From a virus (lineage: Duplodnaviria > Caudoviricetes), in the IMG/VR virus record IMGVR_UViG_2857096214_000002, positions 408 to 64,407 of that record: a stretch of DNA of 64,000 bases, one strand, 5' to 3'. Shown in pieces: positions 603 to 63,547 of the stretch. The notes under the pieces were generated by a model that was not told the origin of the DNA, made no database searches, and worked only from the letters and a program-made list of their open reading frames with translations. A program made the translations under genes and the position numbers. Each line of letters begins with the position of its first letter. The first letter of the stretch is position 1.

Positions 603-968
603 ATGGCACGTCTGACGGTGACCGGGTGGCGCGGTGTGGAGGGGGAGGAGGCTGAGGAGTTCTCGCCCTGGTACTTCGACACGGAGAACGTCCGGGTGAA
701 GGTCGAGAACGAGACGGACCTGGACGGTCAGAGCAACAACGTCTCCAGGACCACCGGTGACGAGTTCAGCCGCGAGACGCTGTACGTGACGGCCAAGGGC
801 CGGCTCGCCGTGCGCTTCACCTCGCAGTGGCAGGGCCAGCCGGACCAGGTGGAGCAGTTGGAGGTCAAGCATGCCGTGGACTGGCTGGTCCGCAACGGCT
901 CGGACCCGTCGGAGTACGAGGGGATGCCGGAGGAAGTGGTGAAGGAGTACCAGAGCCGCGAGGGCTGA
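603..968 (+). CDS. hypothetical protein
   Basis: Strong SD (AGGGAG), high-GC3 codon usage, terminator downstream. Confidence 0.65.
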   Translation: MARLTVTGWRGVEGEEAEEFSPWYFDTENVRVKVENETDLDGQSNNVSRTTGDEFSRETLYVTAKGRLAVRFTSQWQGQPDQVEQLEVKHAVDWLVRNGSDPSEYEGMPEEVVKEYQSREG

Positions 969-986
969 TACCGCGGCCGATTTCTT

Positions 987-1020
987 AGGGCCCCGCTCCC
1001 GTGTGGAGTCGGGGCCTTTT
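987..1020 (+). terminator. intrinsic terminator
   Basis: GGCCCCG-CTCC...GGAG-T-CGGGGCC stem followed by TTTT. Confidence 0.55.
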
Positions 1021-1050
1021 GCATGCCCGAAAACAGGGAGGGAGGTCGGC

Positions 1051-1446
1051 GTGGCCGACGACGAAGTGAGGAAACCGCACGGGCTGATGGGGTACGCCAC
1101 GTGCTTGCACGACCCGCGGTGGGACGACAACGAGTTCGTGCAGAACGTGGGCCATGCGCTGGCCGGCCTGGTCCCGCTGAGGATGTCCGAGCTGAGCAGC
1201 GCGGGTGAGGCCGAACTGATGGCGCTGGCCCAGGGGGCGGCGAAGACCATCACGGAGAAGGGCGATGTCTTCCAGTTCCAGGCGGATCAGCGGCGTAAGG
1301 GCTGGAAGCCGAGCGGTGTGCTGAGCGCACTGGTGAACGCGTACGCGGTCCTGGCCCTGAACTCCCCGGATGAGGGGGTCACGTTCTTCGCGTTCCACTG
1401 CTGTTTCTGGGAGCACGAGGGCTGCCCGAAGAACAACGACCGGTAG
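1051..1446 (+). CDS. hypothetical protein
   Basis: GGGAGGGAGG SD before GTG at 1051; coding-like codon usage. Confidence 0.6.
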   Translation: MADDEVRKPHGLMGYATCLHDPRWDDNEFVQNVGHALAGLVPLRMSELSSAGEAELMALAQGAAKTITEKGDVFQFQADQRRKGWKPSGVLSALVNAYAVLALNSPDEGVTFFAFHCCFWEHEGCPKNNDR

Positions 1447-4733: not shown

Positions 4734-5207
4734 TTAGAACCTGAAGGGTGAGTCCTGCTTTTCGAGGCGTTTGGCTGCTCGCCGTTCGCGGTCGCGGGCT
4801 CGGATGCAGGTGATGCATTCACGCCGGCCGGAGTGCCAGCGGGTGTTTTCCTCGGTGTATTCGTGGCCTTTGGGGCAGTGGGTTTTGCGTGCGTTGCGGG
4901 CGGAGAAGGATTCGCCGCGGGCTACGTTCTCTGTGGCCGGGACCGGTTCGAGATGGTCGGGGTTGCAGCAGGCGCGAATGCGGCAGCGGTGGTCGACGTG
5001 CCAGCCGGGCGGGACGATCTTTTGGTTGGCGAGTTCCCAGGCGATGATGTGGGTGCCCTTTGTGTGGCCGTTGGGGAGGCGGAATTTCCCGTAGCCGTAG
5101 TCGTCCTTGGCGCCTTGCCAGATGTGGCAGTCGTCGTATTCGGTGCCCTTGTCGACCTTGTCGAAGAATCGCTTCTCCCAGTCGCGCCCGGTCGGCCGGC
5201 GACTCAT
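4734..5207 (-). CDS. HNH endonuclease
   Basis: CHIWQG...GYG, VDHRCRIRACCNPDHLEPV...EN, C-terminal KTHCPKGHEYTEEN. Confidence 0.9.
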   Translation of the reverse strand: MSRRPTGRDWEKRFFDKVDKGTEYDDCHIWQGAKDDYGYGKFRLPNGHTKGTHIIAWELANQKIVPPGWHVDHRCRIRACCNPDHLEPVPATENVARGESFSARNARKTHCPKGHEYTEENTRWHSGRRECITCIRARDRERRAAKRLEKQDSPFRF

Positions 5208-5728: not shown

Positions 5729-6397
5729 CTAATACCACCCATTTTTCTGCCAGAAATACCAGGCATCGCACGGGCTTCCGTACCTGGAGTTCATATAAGA
5801 AATCCCCCACCGCATTTGCGTGAGGGGGTTCGTTCGCCAGTCGCTGCCGGCTGACTCCATCTTCGATCCGGGCAGGGCCTGGAAGAGGCCGTAGGCGCCG
5901 GAGCTGGAGTTTGTGGCGAAGGGGTCCCAGCTACTTTCCCTGTAGACCACGTTGCTCAGGCACGAGTACTGGGCGGAGGACATTCGCGAGCGGGCGTAGC
6001 TCCTGGCGCCGATGAGTGTGGGCGCGGCCTTGAGGGCTGGGCGGGCGCCGGAGCGGCTGACGCGTTTCGCGACCGTGGCGGTGACGGTGGGCCGGGGGCT
6101 CGGGCGGGTGGCCGGCGGCTTGTGTTGAGGCGGGGCTGTGGTCTTGCTCGGGGCGGGGGCCTTGGCGGTGGCCTGGTGCCTTAGCGAGCTAACGACGTGG
6201 AGGGGGCTGTCGAGCAGGACACGGAGCGGAGCCGGTGTCGGCGCGATTCGGCCTCGCCGTTCGGGCGGCTTGGTGATGGTGGGGTCCGCGTCAGCGGATC
6301 TGACCAGTGCGAGCGGGATGAGGAGAACGGCTGTCGCGAGGACTGCGGAGATGCGCCAGGCGTGCCAGGAGATATCGGGGATCTTGGGCCGGGACAC
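5729..6397 (-). CDS. secreted lytic transglycosylase (SLT/lysozyme-like)
   Basis: N-terminal signal/TM segment, Pro/Ala linker, RESSW...SSGAYGLFQALPGSKM...RYGSPCDAW. Confidence 0.85.
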   Translation of the reverse strand: MSRPKIPDISWHAWRISAVLATAVLLIPLALVRSADADPTITKPPERRGRIAPTPAPLRVLLDSPLHVVSSLRHQATAKAPAPSKTTAPPQHKPPATRPSPRPTVTATVAKRVSRSGARPALKAAPTLIGARSYARSRMSSAQYSCLSNVVYRESSWDPFATNSSSGAYGLFQALPGSKMESAGSDWRTNPLTQMRWGISYMNSRYGSPCDAWYFWQKNGWY

Positions 6398-6479
6398 GAT
6401 GGGCCTTTCAACGGGGACATGACCCCGGCCATCCCACGGGCGTTCCGGCGTCGGTCACCCTAAAGGCCCGAAAAATGGT

Positions 6480-55828: not shown

Positions 55829-56971
55829 TCAGTTCGTCACGGCCTGCACCACGGCGTAATCCGTGATGAGTCCGAGCCCGAAGATCGAATACCAGGCCAG
55901 AGCGTGTTCACGGCCGAAGTCGAGCACGCCCCCATCGCGCAGTTCGACGGGCAGAGAGATGGCGTGACCCGCGGCATTGTCCCCGATTACCAAAGCACGG
56001 TAGAGGGGATTCGCGGGGGCGTTCGGGTTCGACGGAGTCGACGTGACGGCCGGAATTGCGGGGGTCGATCCGGAGGCGGTGCGGGCGGGCTGACCGCCCC
56101 ACGTCTGCGCGGAATTCGTCGGGATATTCGTCCCGAGCTGCTGGGTCGCCGGCGGAGTCGTGTTGCCCTGGAAGACCTGAGTTGTCTCGATGAACACGAC
56201 ATCGTTCAGACGTCCGATTTCTCCCAGCATGAAGTTGCCGGGAGCCGCATACTTTGTCACCTCGATGAACTCCGGATCATCGCGGAGACGGCGCGACTGA
56301 TGAGGATGTACGAATGCAACGTACGTCTCGCCCAGACGGGGGACGTTCTTCGTCGCGAGGGTCTCCACGCAGTCCTTGACCAGGGCAGACGTGAAGTAGA
56401 AGCCGCCGTTCGTGGCCATCGTTGCTTCGCTGTCCGCAAACATGCCGCGGTCGTAGGGCGAGATCGGAGTGCGGGTGGCGCCAGCCGACCAGGAGGCCAG
56501 CTTGTCATACCCATACAGCACCGACGGGGCGCCCATGAAGGTGTCCCTCGCGAGCGCATCGATGTAGGTAGCCATGTTCCTCCCCAGCAGACGCGCGCCG
56601 GAGGCCATGACGTCGTCGAAACTCGCATTCAGGAGGAGTTCCGTTACAGCGATTGCGAAGCCGTGCTCCGCGACCGTAATAGTGATCTGCTCGGCAGACA
56701 GTGCGTGAGTTTCCATGCGCACGCCCTCGACGAGCTGCTGAGCCCCGTCGAGCGAGCGATACCGCATGAAATTCACGGTGAGGCCGGGGGCAGTCCCAAG
56801 CTCCGTCTTCTTCACAAGAAATTGTTCGAAGCGGAGCACCGGCATCGCCTGAAAGAGCACCTCCTTCGACCAAATAGTTTGGATCGCCGGAGTGAGCATT
56901 GTGGAGTTCGCCGCCTGGTACGCGGTGGGCGTCGGCGACAGGACCGGAGTCCCAGTGATTCCGCTTGCCAC
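55829..56971 (-). CDS. major capsid protein (N4-gp56 family)
   Basis: F.AMP.LRFEQF..KKT.L...PG, L.EG, E.G, HP.Q...L..D, GEIG....V.F.ET, DFGR...LAWY. Confidence 0.92.
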   Translation of the reverse strand: MASGITGTPVLSPTPTAYQAANSTMLTPAIQTIWSKEVLFQAMPVLRFEQFLVKKTELGTAPGLTVNFMRYRSLDGAQQLVEGVRMETHALSAEQITITVAEHGFAIAVTELLLNASFDDVMASGARLLGRNMATYIDALARDTFMGAPSVLYGYDKLASWSAGATRTPISPYDRGMFADSEATMATNGGFYFTSALVKDCVETLATKNVPRLGETYVAFVHPHQSRRLRDDPEFIEVTKYAAPGNFMLGEIGRLNDVVFIETTQVFQGNTTPPATQQLGTNIPTNSAQTWGGQPARTASGSTPAIPAVTSTPSNPNAPANPLYRALVIGDNAAGHAISLPVELRDGGVLDFGREHALAWYSIFGLGLITDYAVVQAVTN

Positions 56972-57936: not shown

Positions 57937-59655
57937 TCAGTCGTTTTCCGGATTTCTCCGCTGGGCGATTTTCGTGCCCTTGGAGAGCGTCACGAGTTCA
58001 CTGAGGACCGATTCGATGTCCTGACCGCGGCCTGTGCCGGGAAGACCTGGCAGAGGGCCGGCGGCGGTCGCTCCCGACTTGGTGGCGTCCTTCGTGCCAC
58101 TCGCGGGGGCAGGCGGCGGGCTTTCCACGCCTTCAGGCGGCAATCCCGTTTTCTGCAAGATAGCGCTGGCAATTTGAGCCTTGATATATTCCAGCGCTCC
58201 GTCTTCCTTGGCCTCCGTGAGACGCTCGTCGAAGATCTCCGCCATCTTCTCGTCGACGAAGACCTCGCCCAGGTCCCGCAGGGCTCCACGCTTTGATTCC
58301 AGACCGAGCGCGAGCTTCGCCTGGACCTCGTTGAGCATGACCAATTCGTCGACCGGAAGCGGGGGCGGCCAGTCGCACGTGGTGTCGTAGACATCGGGGT
58401 CGCGGGGGTCGACGACGAGAGGCTGTTCCTCGGAAGTACGGATGCCCTGGGTATCGGGGTTGTAGATGCGGGTCTCGGGCTCGTACAGGAAGAGCGTGCG
58501 CAGGACGAGTTCGTTGATCCGGCGCAGGCCCTCGGTGTAGTTGGTCTGCTTGAGCGAGTACCGCTGCATCAACGGGAAGAATTGAATGGAGAGGGCAACT
58601 CCACTCGTATTCGAGATCGCCTGAGCCTGCCCCAGGGCTGATTCCGGGACGCCCGTCAGCTCGTGCATGGAGCGCTTGATCAGGTCCAGGTAGGCCAAAG
58701 GGCCCGCCAAATCAACGCCGTTCTCCAAATTGAAAACGTTGGCATCCTTGGGCAGACCGCCCCAGATCTTGCGGGCGCCGCGCTCCAGGTTGCTTGCCTT
58801 CGCCCCGGTGATGATCGTGACGGGAGCGGAGTGGTAATTCACGATGTCCGAGATCTCGGTGGCCTTTTCGTTGAACTCGCGGTTCAGCGGGATGACGTCC
58901 ACGATGTCGGCCAGGCCCCAGGGCGACCCGGAGATGGAGATGTTCCGGATGTGCACGATCGGGATCGTTCCGAGGGGGTTTTCACGGGCGTCGAGCAGCT
59001 CGTCGTTGACGTACTCCTCAATGAATTCGTCCGTGATGATCTCGGTGTAGGTGTAGACGGCGCGGGTCCCCTCCATCGAGGTGCCCCAGAACTTGTACTT
59101 GATCTTGAACCGGAGCAAGCGGTAATCGATCCCGGTCATGCGGGTGATACTCCGGAAAACACTGTGCAGCGTTCAGCGGAAGAATCCTCACGCGACCGGG
59201 ATGCTCATTTCCTGCCGGGTCGATCCATGTGGGTTCGTAGGCGACTTTGACGAAGGAGTCCCCAGAGACTCCGCCGTTCTCGCCCATCTGCCAGAGCAAG
59301 CTCTTCTTGTCGTTGTCGACGTTCCAGGCCCTGTCGAGAAGGGCGGGAACGATGTGCTCGTACCGCTTCTCGGACTGGAAGTGGACGCCCCTGCCGAAGG
59401 TGAAATTCGTGATGTAGCGGGAGAGCGCGCCGACGTAGTTGATGGTGACGTTGGGCTCGCCGGCCTCGCGCTTATATGCCCAGTGGTACCCGAGGTACCA
59501 GGCCCAGTGATTGGAGTAGCGCGTCAGACGAGGGCCGTGGACTTCGGTAATTCAAACTCCTCGTCCGCCAGCTCGACCAGGCCCAAGGGGCTGACCGAAA
59601 CGGTCAGGTCCGAGGCGCTGGCCCGCATGCTGGGGGAAACAAAGGCGATTGACAT
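57937..59655 (-). CDS. portal protein (SPP1 gp6-like), split into three reading-frame segments by two TTA-containing gaps
   Basis: NPLG.IP.VH..N...S..GL.D, SG.AL, V.W..PLP; skipping 8 nt at 59543-59550 and 7 nt at 59119-59125 gives a continuous ~567-aa ORF. Confidence 0.85.
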
Positions 59656-60856: not shown

Positions 60857-62416
60857 CTACCAGGGGGAGTTGTGCATCTCGGCTTCCGGCATGGCGATAT
60901 CCGCCGTCAGGTAGAGGGCGTTCGCGAGGCTGTCCACGTAGTCATCGTGGGCTGCGTCTACCTCGGGAGCGGCCACGATGATGTGGGGGCCCTGGTAGGT
61001 GAGTTCCGCGTCTTCCATCTGCTGCCGGAACCGGCGCCAGTTTTTCGTCTGCCGGGTCTTCGCGTGGGCCGGCCAGATGACGAGGCCCTTGGACATGAGA
61101 TCCATGGTGTGGGCCCAACGCTTGGTCTGGTTGGTGCGGTCGCTCTTGAGGTCGACGATCTGCGCGTACGGCATGAGGACACGAAGCCGACTGGCGACGA
61201 CGTCGCCCAGGCCGCCGGCGTCGATGCCGATGGCGAAGACGTTGTAGTGGTTCAGGAAATCAACGATCCGGTAGTACTGGCTTTCCCAGTCCATGCCGGT
61301 CAGGTCTAGCCAGTTGAGTACGCGATGTTCGAAGTAGCCGTATTCATCGGGATAGTCCCAGTTGACCCAGCACACGGTGACGACCGTGGAGTCTGCTTTT
61401 CTTGCGGGATCGATGCCGACAACGACGGGAGAGCGGTGCCATTCCTGGACCACACGCATGGAGACATCGCCCAGGGCATCGAACCGGTCGCTCGTGACGA
61501 GCATGCCTTTGTCGAGGAGCCAGATGAGGCGGTAGCTCAGCTTGAATTCGTCGGACTCCTCGCCGAGGCGCTCCTTCTCGGACTCGACGAACTTCCGGTA
61601 ACGCGGGACGTGTTTGGAGACCTCTTTCCAGTCGACCTGGAAGTGGTCGGTCTTCCTGCCTTTCCGGTTGGCCTCGCGCTTGTTCTTCTGGATTTGCTCG
61701 TAGAACCCGTTCTTCGTGTAGGACGGGGTTCCCGTCATGCACAGGGTGCCCGCGGTGCTGGACAGCATGGGGGCAATCGACTTGTTCAAGACCTTGTCGT
61801 CGGCGGCCTGGGCCTCGTCGATGATGACCAGGTGGTAGGTCTGCCCTTCGATCTGTGCTTTCGGGTGGGCGGTCTGCTTCCGGATATGGGAGCCGCAGCG
61901 CTTGAGCCGCAGCAGCTTCCCGCGGGTGATGAGCTTGTCGTCGATATCGGGGTCAGCGAGCACGTCTTGGGCGCGCTCGGAGGTGAGCCGGCCGGTGATG
62001 CGGGTGAAAAGCGTCTCCGACATTTCGTCGGTCGGGGCGAAGACGCCGACCCACAGCCCCTCGGCGAATTTCCCCAGCAGCTTGGGGAAGAGCTTGGCCA
62101 GCCGAGGCAACATGATCGCCGCGCCGACCACGGTGTCCGCGACGGTCTCGGACTTGCCGCTCTGCCGGGACCACAGGGCGGTGATCTTGGCGGAGTCCTC
62201 GGTGATGAGGCTCTCCAGAATCCGGCGGGCGAGGGGGAGTTGGTAGGGGCGCAGCGGGTGGCCGGACAGGTCGTCGATGACCAGGATGATCTTGCTGATG
62301 ATGTCCTCGATGAGGGCCTGGTCGTCGAGGCTGTTGGCGGCCGGCTCGCTCTCTTCGGGCACGCCCAGGGTCAGCTCGTGTTCGGTGGCGTCGAGCGGCG
62401 TGGTCCTGGTCCCCAT
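60857..62416 (-). CDS. terL: terminase large subunit
   Basis: SRQSGKS Walker A, LVIIDEAQ Walker B, TGTP, GIDPAR, HDDYVDSLA. Confidence 0.93.
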   Translation of the reverse strand: MGTRTTPLDATEHELTLGVPEESEPAANSLDDQALIEDIISKIILVIDDLSGHPLRPYQLPLARRILESLITEDSAKITALWSRQSGKSETVADTVVGAAIMLPRLAKLFPKLLGKFAEGLWVGVFAPTDEMSETLFTRITGRLTSERAQDVLADPDIDDKLITRGKLLRLKRCGSHIRKQTAHPKAQIEGQTYHLVIIDEAQAADDKVLNKSIAPMLSSTAGTLCMTGTPSYTKNGFYEQIQKNKREANRKGRKTDHFQVDWKEVSKHVPRYRKFVESEKERLGEESDEFKLSYRLIWLLDKGMLVTSDRFDALGDVSMRVVQEWHRSPVVVGIDPARKADSTVVTVCWVNWDYPDEYGYFEHRVLNWLDLTGMDWESQYYRIVDFLNHYNVFAIGIDAGGLGDVVASRLRVLMPYAQIVDLKSDRTNQTKRWAHTMDLMSKGLVIWPAHAKTRQTKNWRRFRQQMEDAELTYQGPHIIVAAPEVDAAHDDYVDSLANALYLTADIAMPEAEMHNSPW

Positions 62417-62521
62417 GTCGGCGAAGCTAAATCGCCGCAAATATGGACAGATAATCCCCGTAGAGGCATCAATGCATGGAAGTCCCTGACTACCTATGCG
62501 TTACGCGGCTAGGGTGCCTCC

Positions 62522-63547
62522 ATGCCAACCAGCACGAGCACGCCCGCCTGGGCCGACCGCAACCGCCGTAGCCGCAACGTCGACATGGACCTGCCCACGT
62601 TCCTGTCGCGCTGGGAGAAGCAGATCAGCAGCCGGGAGACCTGGCGGAAGTACCGGCCCTACTTCGACCTCTTCCTTCTGTGGATGGAGCGCTACAGCGA
62701 CCACGCAGACATCGAGGTACTGAAGGACGCCGGCGTCGAGGAGCTGGAGGACTACTTCGACTACCTCAAGTCCCCCCACTGGGACGGCCACCCCGGCGAC
62801 TGCGTTACCGAATGCGTCAGCCTGCCCTACGAAACCCCGAGCCTGAAGGCGAAGTACGACGCCCTCAGCTCGGCCTTCAACTACGCCGGCGTCCTCCAGC
62901 TCCGCCGCACCAACCCTGTCAAGGCCATCAAGCTCGAAAAGCGGCAGCGCAAGCAGCGCCTGATCCTGCTGCCCTGGGAAATCGGCGACGTCATGGGGGC
63001 CGCCCGCCAGACATCCATCCGATCCGCGGTCGCCAACGGAATGGCCATCGGCCCCGGCCTGCGATGCGACGAGATCGAAAACGTGGACGTCGAGCGGTTC
63101 TACCAGGTCCCCCGGGGGCGAATGCTGCGCTTCCAACGCAAGGGCGGCGACTGGACGGACATCGACATCCCGCGCCCGCTCGAACCCCTCCTGGACGAGC
63201 ACCTCGACGGCCGCACCGAAGGGCCGCTCATCATGTCCACCGGCCGGCGCACCCGCAACCAGGAGACCGGCCGACTCGAACACACCCGCCTCGACGCCTC
63301 CGGCATCTACCGCATGGTCCAGGAAGCCGGCCGCGAATGCGGCTTCAAGATCGGCCCACACGACGGCCGCGCCACCTCCATCACCCTCGCCCTGGTCGAC
63401 CCGGCCAAGCCCAAGCACGACCGGATCATGAACTACTACGGGCACAAGGACTTCAGCACCACCATGATCTACCGCCACGCCTCCCGCCTCCCGGCCGGCC
63501 ACCACCGCAACCCCTACGGCATCGACTGGAGGACCCAGGCCCCTTAA
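62522..63547 (+). CDS. tyrosine recombinase / integrase
   Basis: GLRCDEI (R), KGG (K), PHDGRAT (HxxR), GH....TT.IY (H,Y). Confidence 0.9.
   Translation: MPTSTSTPAWADRNRRSRNVDMDLPTFLSRWEKQISSRETWRKYRPYFDLFLLWMERYSDHADIEVLKDAGVEELEDYFDYLKSPHWDGHPGDCVTECVSLPYETPSLKAKYDALSSAFNYAGVLQLRRTNPVKAIKLEKRQRKQRLILLPWEIGDVMGAARQTSIRSAVANGMAIGPGLRCDEIENVDVERFYQVPRGRMLRFQRKGGDWTDIDIPRPLEPLLDEHLDGRTEGPLIMSTGRRTRNQETGRLEHTRLDASGIYRMVQEAGRECGFKIGPHDGRATSITLALVDPAKPKHDRIMNYYGHKDFSTTMIYRHASRLPAGHHRNPYGIDWRTQAP

Follow-up and report, generated by a model that had tools for sequence, protein, structure and literature searches.

The window analysed in this work, viz. the 64,000 nucleotides (nt) at positions 408-64407 of an IMG/VR provirus record of 64,407 nt (IMGVR_UViG_2857096214_000002; 66% G+C), carries on its minus strand a gene for a portal protein, and the coding sequence of this gene is interrupted at two places by short gaps, each of which begins with an in-frame TTA codon. 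The gene starts with the ATG at 59655, ends with the TGA at 57937 and is distributed over three reading frames. Its parts, and the sequence elements that bear on how the two gaps are read, are listed below; take-off denotes the last codon read before a gap and landing the codon with which the gap ends.

57937..59655, minus strand: the whole portal gene (SPP1 Gp6-like), 1719 nt, in three frames
59551..59655, minus strand: portal coding segment 1, codons 1-35 (MSIAF...ADEEFE), its last codon being the take-off GAA at 59553-59551
59543..59550, minus strand: coding gap 1, 8 nt, consisting of TTA 59550-48, CC and the landing GAA 59545-43; absent from 41/41 uninterrupted loci
59126..59542, minus strand: portal coding segment 2, 139 codons (VHGPRL...HPHDRDR), its last codon being the take-off CGA at 59128-59126
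59119..59125, minus strand: coding gap 2, 7 nt, consisting of TTA 59125-23, C and the landing CGC 59121-19; absent from 41/41 uninterrupted loci
57937..59118, minus strand: portal coding segment 3, 393 codons plus stop (LLRFKIKY...PEND)
59557..59562, minus strand: Shine-Dalgarno-like GAGGAG, 3 nt 5' of the first take-off codon; it encodes part of a conserved D-E-E and is also found in uninterrupted homologs
59524..59526, minus strand: TGA that closes a product of 43 amino acids (aa) if the TTA of site 1 is decoded normally (frame-0 open reading frame, ORF, 59524..59655)
59018..59020, minus strand: TGA that ends translation if the TTA of site 2 is decoded normally (middle-frame ORF 59018..59299)

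The first site reads GAG GAG TTT GAA TTA CC GAA GTC and the second GAT CGA TTA C CGC TTG. When the inserts of 8 and 7 nt are left out, 1704 nt remain, which code for a protein of 567 aa. This is the length given for the portal in a preliminary description of this DNA; when the sequence was read again and its three frames were translated, every coordinate and codon reported there for the portal was found to be correct, as was the statement that normal decoding of the two TTA codons leads to stops. Segments 2 and 3 match consecutive parts of the Pfam family SPP1_portal (PF05133), the former at profile positions 11-132 (E 0.0054; 16.2 bits, which alone is below the cut-off of 25.5) and the latter at positions 149-410 (E 8.9e-13; 48.4 bits, against the same cut-off). 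The portal is 55-71% identical to the annotated portals of the Streptomyces phages Alone3 and BRock, and these align across both junctions without any gap (EEFE-M-HGPRL and HDRDR-(L/M)-LEFK).

The distribution of the two gaps was examined in a set of loci that carry a homolog of segment 3, viz. 54 loci from IMG/VR and 7 from species-representative genomes, against which the three segments were run separately by tblastn. All three segments are present in 59 of the loci (L062 is the same contig as L011). In 41 of these the gene is uninterrupted: start and EVHGPRL codon are separated by exactly 102 nt, and the length of the following interval is divisible by 3. The other 18 (17 distinct contigs) have extra bases. 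The genes closest to that of the window were aligned with MAFFT, and this close set consists of 15 genes, viz. the window and 14 loci with at least 75% protein identity, from which the duplicate L062 was dropped. An apparent stop in L056 and one TTA each in L008 and L060 arise only from where MAFFT placed the gap. From one to three TTA-led inserts are present in 13 of the 15 close genes, at 8 positions and with lengths of 4 to 13 nt (including 5, 6, 7, 8 and 10); the portals of L005 and L006 have no insert. The variants are listed below by portal codon, with the take-off codon first and the inserted bases after it.

Codon ~30: CTT, then TTA C CTC (L008, L060)
Codon ~32: GAG, then TTA CC GAG (L009, L058, L059, L061)
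Codon ~32: GAA, then TTA CCTCGAT GAA (L010)
Codon 35: GAA, then TTA CC GAA (window)
Codon 35: GAA, then TTA T GAA (L004)
Codon 35: GAG, then TTA GG TAG (L056)
Codon ~41: CGA, then TTA CGC or TTA CGT, 6 nt and in frame (L007, L008, L011, L060, L064)
Codon ~50: TAT, then T TAC (L007, L008, L011)
Codon ~54: CAC, then TTA C CAC (L060, L064)
Codon ~54: CAC, then TTA G CAC (L058)
Codon ~174: CGA, then TTA C CGC (window, L056)
Codon ~174: CGA, then TTA G C, an irregular 5-nt form followed by CTG (L064)

The sites are concentrated in the first 55 codons of the portal. These results answer two questions that the preliminary description had raised, viz. whether the 8-nt and 7-nt gaps are lacking in homologous genes and whether gaps with TTA recur at varying positions. 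The same comparison speaks to the possibility that the inserts are errors of sequencing or assembly, which had earlier been judged unlikely and which can now be regarded as having a negligible probability. The carriers include isolate genomes, viz. Streptomyces sp. HMX87, S. mangrovi, NPDC058257, NPDC026672, AD2-2 and Saccharothrix sp. ST-888, which are six independent assemblies, and 8-nt and 7-nt inserts are common to independent isolate assemblies. Further, contigs from soil metagenomes of three studies span site 2 and an insert is kept in each of them. L056 and the contigs of two of these studies have the same 7-nt insert as the window (the two soil contigs with this form align without a gap), whereas the contig of the third study, which is ~88% identical, has one substitution and one added base and can be read as an 8-nt version, CGA TTA CC CGA TTG. 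In our reading of the third contig the length of the insert has changed while the match between its codons has been kept. The inserts are also 4-10 nt of complex sequence and not homopolymer slips. As a separate observation, the window and L056, which are far apart on the portal tree, have an identical site-2 insert that is missing from nearer relatives. This insert may be either old and often lost, or it may have been moved by recombination.

In all of the insert variants of the close set (13/13), the last conserved codon is followed directly, in frame 0, by TTA. This codon is otherwise very rare in these phages. In 61 crudely called ORFs of the window (17,460 codons, of which 1,401 are leucine codons) there is no in-frame TTA, and therefore the two at the breaks are the only in-frame TTA codons in a coding context in the window. 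The genes flanking the portal in its 14 relatives have none either (0/20,007 codons), and in the 15 aligned portal genes only one in-frame TTA is found outside the inserts, viz. at codon 531 of the insert-free portal of L006, which reads CCC TTA CCG where all of the others have CTT, CTG or CTC. Judged from this sequence, the TTA of L006 would represent a conventional, positive dependence on bldA, with no gap. No tRNA gene was found within the 64-kb window.

The heptamer ATTACCG, which is shared by both sites of the window, as the preliminary description had pointed out, does not hold up as a defining feature, as the gaps of the relatives use TTAT, TTAG, TTACCTC and other sequences. The heptamer is present 6 times in the window where 2.3 copies are expected; because 6 copies are also reached in 3 of 100 shuffled sequences, it is by itself weak evidence. 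In more distant relatives of lower G+C content, breaks led by a stop codon are found in place of those led by TTA (GAA TAA GT GCA in L012 and CGA TAG C in L017), and three metagenome contigs (L046, L047 and L049) have an identical 11-nt insert that contains TAA (TGG AGA CCC TAA GG). No matched landing codon could be assigned for the stop-led inserts of these five loci, all of which fall within the N-terminal 55 codons of the portal.

For the TTA-led inserts of the close set, the landing codon belongs to the same two-base family as the take-off codon in 11 of the 13 variants (Poisson-binomial P 1.3e-13, based on base composition), and at least one variant with such a match exists at each of the 8 insert positions. 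The matched pairs are GAA/GAA, GAG/GAG, CGA/CGC, CGA/CGT, CTT/CTC, TAT/TAC and CAC/CAC; where the two codons of a pair are not identical (CGA/CGC/CGT, CTT/CTC, TAT/TAC), they are read by one tRNA. These matches bear on the choice between a ribosome hop, in which the whole gap is passed over, and a single-step frameshift at a hungry UUA (-1 or +2 at site 1, +1 at site 2), which would leave 2-3 extra residues at each junction. In favour of a frameshift of this kind, one shift is sufficient to correct insert lengths of 3n+1 or 3n+2; at both sites of the window the frame that would be entered is open (ATT ACC GAA at site 1 and TAC CGC at site 2), and hungry codons are known to promote frameshifting. 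However, it leaves unexplained why the landing codon is matched in most of the variants, and why the +4, +6 and +13 variants all finish on a matched codon. The extra residues are also at odds with the length of junction 1, which is invariant across the 41 uninterrupted loci. In addition, the shifted frame contains a TAG in L058 (CAC T, then TAG) and in L056 (..GTT AGG TAG), no slippery heptamer of the type X XXY YYZ is present at either site, and a P-site tRNA that moved by -1 or +1 would be placed opposite UGA or GAU. We therefore regard frameshifting as an unlikely explanation of the inserts overall; if it is granted that recoding does occur, a hop is the probable form of it, and a one-base shift is left with a minor share.

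Indirect indications of the functional state of the gene come from the sequences that lie downstream of the breaks. With the insert columns removed, a complete ORF is obtained for 15/15 of the close genes. The ratio of nonsynonymous to synonymous substitution rates (dN/dS) has a median of 0.09 for codons 55-173 and 0.12 for codons 174 to ~505, with a maximum of 0.25 (105 pairs); between the window and its relatives it is 0.05-0.17 in segment 2 and 0.055-0.18 in segment 3. For pairs of genes that share the same insert, dN/dS is 0.02-0.18, with dS of 0.59-1.47 in 14 of 15 pairs (0.049 in the pair L059/L061), and therefore selection has preserved the downstream frames during the time in which these genes carried the insert. 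Further, the only indels in the close genes with lengths that are not multiples of 3 are the blocks containing TTA, all of the others being of 3, 6, 15 or 18 nt. This pattern does not resemble the random decay which the preliminary description had named as an outcome that would speak against its proposal. It also speaks against the suggestion that the portal of a prophage in decay has become a pseudogene and that the inserts are inactivating lesions. The supposed lesions are led by TTA and have matched codons, and the terminase, scaffold and capsid ORFs next to the portal are intact. A prophage in decay would be in line with the origin of the window from a provirus record, for which the completeness estimated by CheckV is 65%, and with the irregular form of site 2 in L064, but in view of the selection on the interrupted genes such an origin is very improbable.

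It will also be incorrect to interpret the 8 and 7 nt of the window, which add up to 15 nt, as frameshifts that compensate each other, because the stretch of 139 codons that separates them shows conservation in a frame of its own and because the relatives L004, L009 and L010 carry a single insert. The inserts are thus real, recurrent and TTA-led, they are flanked by matched codons, and they are present in genes under purifying selection. The comparative data in this way uphold the structural part of the preliminary description, viz. that the portal gene contains two TTA-gated gaps with matched codons in what is real DNA, and that the gene is maintained by purifying selection.

The reading which best fits these patterns, and to which we assign a probability of about 0.72, is that the two gaps in the portal mRNA are passed by short translational bypassing (a ribosome hop) that is triggered by UUA. 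According to this reading, UUA in the A site would be decoded slowly, as it depends upon a single tRNA-Leu(UAA), which in Streptomyces is the product of bldA. The peptidyl-tRNA in the P site, viz. tRNA-Glu on GAA at site 1 or tRNA-Arg on CGA at site 2, would then unpair, the mRNA would slip by 8 or 7 nt, and the same tRNA would pair again with the landing codon GAA or CGC. Decoding would restart at GUC (site 1) or UUG (site 2), leading to a colinear portal of 567 aa. However, if UUA is decoded normally, translation would terminate after 43 aa at site 1 or at the TGA at 59018 at site 2.

Several observations weigh against this reading. The Shine-Dalgarno-like GAGGAG, which the preliminary description had noted before the first take-off codon, is indeed present, but only at site 1, and it is not specific for insert-bearing genes since the uninterrupted homologs share it. 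The local folding of the RNA around sites 1 and 2 is not significant (z-scores of -1.25 and -0.31). Two of the 13 variants have an unmatched landing codon (site 1 of L056, where it is TAG, and site 2 of L064, where CGA TTA G C is followed by CTG), not every one of the 13 variants is an independent event, and the insert of the type CGA TTA CGC/CGT, which is present in 5 loci, is in frame and requires no hop. Site 2 of L064 and the break of L017 are fitted better by a frameshift than by a hop, the latter resembling a +1 shift at a stop codon. Inserts may also be spread by recombination, because their distribution on the portal tree is patchy. No interrupted portal was seen in the 15 matching records of cultured phages; 6 of these records, from 5 phages of Streptomyces, are related, and among them the portals of Alone3 and BRock were checked by alignment and the others by their annotation as a single portal coding sequence. 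Lastly, limitation of the bldA tRNA in young hyphae is debated.

A design of this kind has been proposed before for a different gene. For the large terminase of phage phiHau3 (g6/g7/g8) and of the prophages of StrepC.1 and S. catenulae, gaps led by UUA have been described (Smith et al. 2013, as cited in Antonov et al. 2023, PMC10732093), and in phiHau3 two 10-nt inserts of this type are proposed to be bypassed when the bldA tRNA is lacking (PMC10732093). According to the same paper, such inserts are present in only 3 of 100 terminase genes, and when a UAA version was expressed in E. coli, mass spectrometry revealed a junction peptide (PMC10732093). The phiHau3 precedent, which the preliminary description had brought up, is thus real, and both of its sites could be read directly in the sequence (GGC TTA CTCC GGT AAG and TCT TTA ACGG TCC ACG, each with a hop of +10). 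The portal resembles the phiHau3 terminase in many respects: it is an essential late gene of a Streptomyces phage or prophage, its short inserts are absent from homologs and begin with an in-frame UUA, there are two sites per gene with synonymous take-off and landing codons (GGC..GGT and TCT..TCC in phiHau3, GAA..GAA and CGA..CGC in the window), a stop follows soon after the UUA if it is decoded, and a link to the availability of the bldA tRNA is proposed. However, the gene is a portal and not a terminase and belongs to an unrelated phage lineage, the hops are of +8 and +7 in the window and +4 to +13 in its relatives and not +10, the portal sites are clustered in the first 55 codons, and the distant relatives L012, L017 and L046 use TAA or TAG. 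In contrast to the 3 of 100 terminase genes (PMC10732093), inserts are present in 13 of the 15 close portal genes, at 8 positions.

In T4 gene 60, which is another case of bypassing, 50 nt are skipped with a UAG at the take-off site, and a take-off stem-loop and a signal in the nascent peptide are needed (PMC10732093, PMC5009743). The portal shares with this system the matched take-off and landing codons, a slow codon in the A site and the formation of one protein from two out-of-frame ORFs, but its gaps are only 7-8 nt long, the codon in the A site is a rare sense codon, and there is no significant structure. Short hops at hungry or stop codons were reportedly seen in E. coli reporters by Weiss and co-workers in 1987 and by Gallant and Lindsley. 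As in the portal reading, starvation of the A site in those reporters lets the peptidyl-tRNA pair again some nucleotides further downstream, and their hops of +5/+6 are in the same range; unlike these low-level events in artificial constructs, the design of the portal is fixed and conserved in natural essential genes.

In a review, cases of the phiHau3 type have been considered as the best candidates for regulatory bypassing (Atkins 2016, PMC5009743), and a paper of 2025 mentions a possible UUA-linked bypass in the primase of Bxb1 (PMC12646305). No published portal case was found by a full-text search of the literature, with the limit that PMC10732093 treats the terminase (its one mention of a portal being that of GEO) and that its supplements may list more genes. 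The portal is a new gene family, with a much richer natural series, for a design that so far has been proposed for a few terminase genes.

Whether bypassing in the portal serves a regulatory purpose is a separate question, as the inserts could also exist for a reason that lies at the level of DNA. For example, they may break the target of a homing endonuclease or other nuclease, or they may spread by selfish gene conversion, in which case hopping merely tolerates them, as in T4 gene 60, and no developmental regulation is involved. The fact that relatives have mobile group I introns in their capsid genes is compatible with such a view, as are the patchy distribution of the inserts on the gene tree with identical inserts in distant branches and the recurrence of the motif TTACC. 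However, within ~3 kb of the portal no extra gene or gene of the HNH type is present in the window or in the relatives, and the order of genes is the same in the window and 13 of the 14 close relatives; for L005 both statements are limited by the fact that only 97 nt are available upstream. In this check, the two neighbours of the portal in the window were compared with Pfam, without a match, and the ORFs of the relatives were compared by tblastn only. Further, because TTA is strictly the first codon of the gap at all 8 positions, selection appears to act upon decoding and not on the recognition of DNA. An origin of the inserts at the DNA level is for these reasons considered improbable, though not to the degree of a decayed gene.

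Returning to UUA-triggered bypassing, the yield of the hop may rise when charged bldA tRNA is scarce, and the supply of portal and the assembly of virions would then be coupled to the growth stage of the host; to this link we give slightly less than even odds. An inverse gate that senses bldA, as put forward in the preliminary description, is plausible. In that proposal portal would be produced only under scarcity of the bldA tRNA, and the arrangement of two sites in series would make the gate sharper. A still wider proposal, which we make only tentatively and with the balance somewhat against it, is that TTA-led hops in the portal are a widespread and repeatedly evolved regulatory device of temperate Streptomyces phages, by which virions would be assembled only while charged bldA tRNA is scarce, i.e. 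in young, growing hyphae, and assembly would stop with the differentiation of the colony. The sharpness of the switch might in this case be set by placing sites in series and close to the N-terminus, which might also avoid a toxic truncated portal.

The significance of these results derives from the fact that the case for regulatory bypassing has so far been built on three terminase genes and a single heterologous experiment. The same design in a second essential gene, with 13 variants at 8 positions and under purifying selection, provides comparative support of a kind that the terminase case lacks. The natural variants are ready test constructs, as they differ in the length of the hop, in having a matched or an unmatched landing codon and in including an in-frame version, and several of the carrier prophages, which are potentially inducible, reside in cultured strains. 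If the link to bldA is true, the phage would read the developmental clock of its host by means of one tRNA; if the inserts do form a regulatory device, the hops of +4 to +13 together with the TAA and TAG variants of the lower-G+C relatives would be a set of natural mutants that shows by what rules short-range hopping operates. These results are also of importance for annotation, as gene calling at present breaks such portal genes into two or three fragments or labels them as pseudogenes.

The portal lies among the late genes of the minus strand, the order of which is large terminase, two small ORFs, portal, a scaffold-like ORF and major capsid. The neighbouring features of the window are as follows.

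60857..62440, minus strand: large terminase (Pfam Terminase_6N/6C)
Between the large terminase and the portal, minus strand: two small ORFs without a Pfam family
Between the portal and the major capsid in the late-gene order, minus strand: scaffold-like ORF
55829..56971, minus strand: major capsid (Phage_capsid_4/3), uninterrupted in the window
62522..63547, plus strand: tyrosine integrase

Some other candidate features were considered and rejected. A stem formed by GACGAGG and CCUCGUC at site 1 is not kept in the relatives. ATTACCG as the mark of a mobile mini-element was dismissed, as the four other copies in the window are not at frame breaks. When the window was scanned for other hop sites of the form X-TTA-N-X' with a change of frame, none was accepted: in the minus-strand candidate at 6192 the TTA is out of frame within a continuous ORF of 241 aa, the TTA of the minus-strand candidate at 1298 is antisense to a better ORF on the plus strand (943..1446), and the remaining candidates have a poor coding signal.

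A few further observations concern other genes of the window and its relatives. In several close relatives the major capsid gene is broken by group I introns, which occupy three different positions (Rfam RF00028; 52-78 bits, where the gathering score is 50) and are located as given below.

L005: 2882-3139 and 4114-4384, group I introns in the capsid gene
L011: 5198-5439 and 5744-5996, group I introns in the capsid gene
L064: 5856-6107, group I intron in the capsid gene
L007: 3717-3974 and 4943-5196, group I introns in the capsid gene

The capsid gene of L056 has a similar gap of ~285 nt in its tblastn match, with no Rfam match at the gathering score. In the window, the minus-strand ORF at 4734-5207 (157 aa) lies at a distance of 54 kb from the portal; its C-terminal part is rich in Cys and His and by eye resembles an endonuclease of the HNH type. 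The minus-strand ORF at 5729-6454 (241 aa) has a proline-rich middle and a C-terminal part that by eye is similar to lytic transglycosylases.

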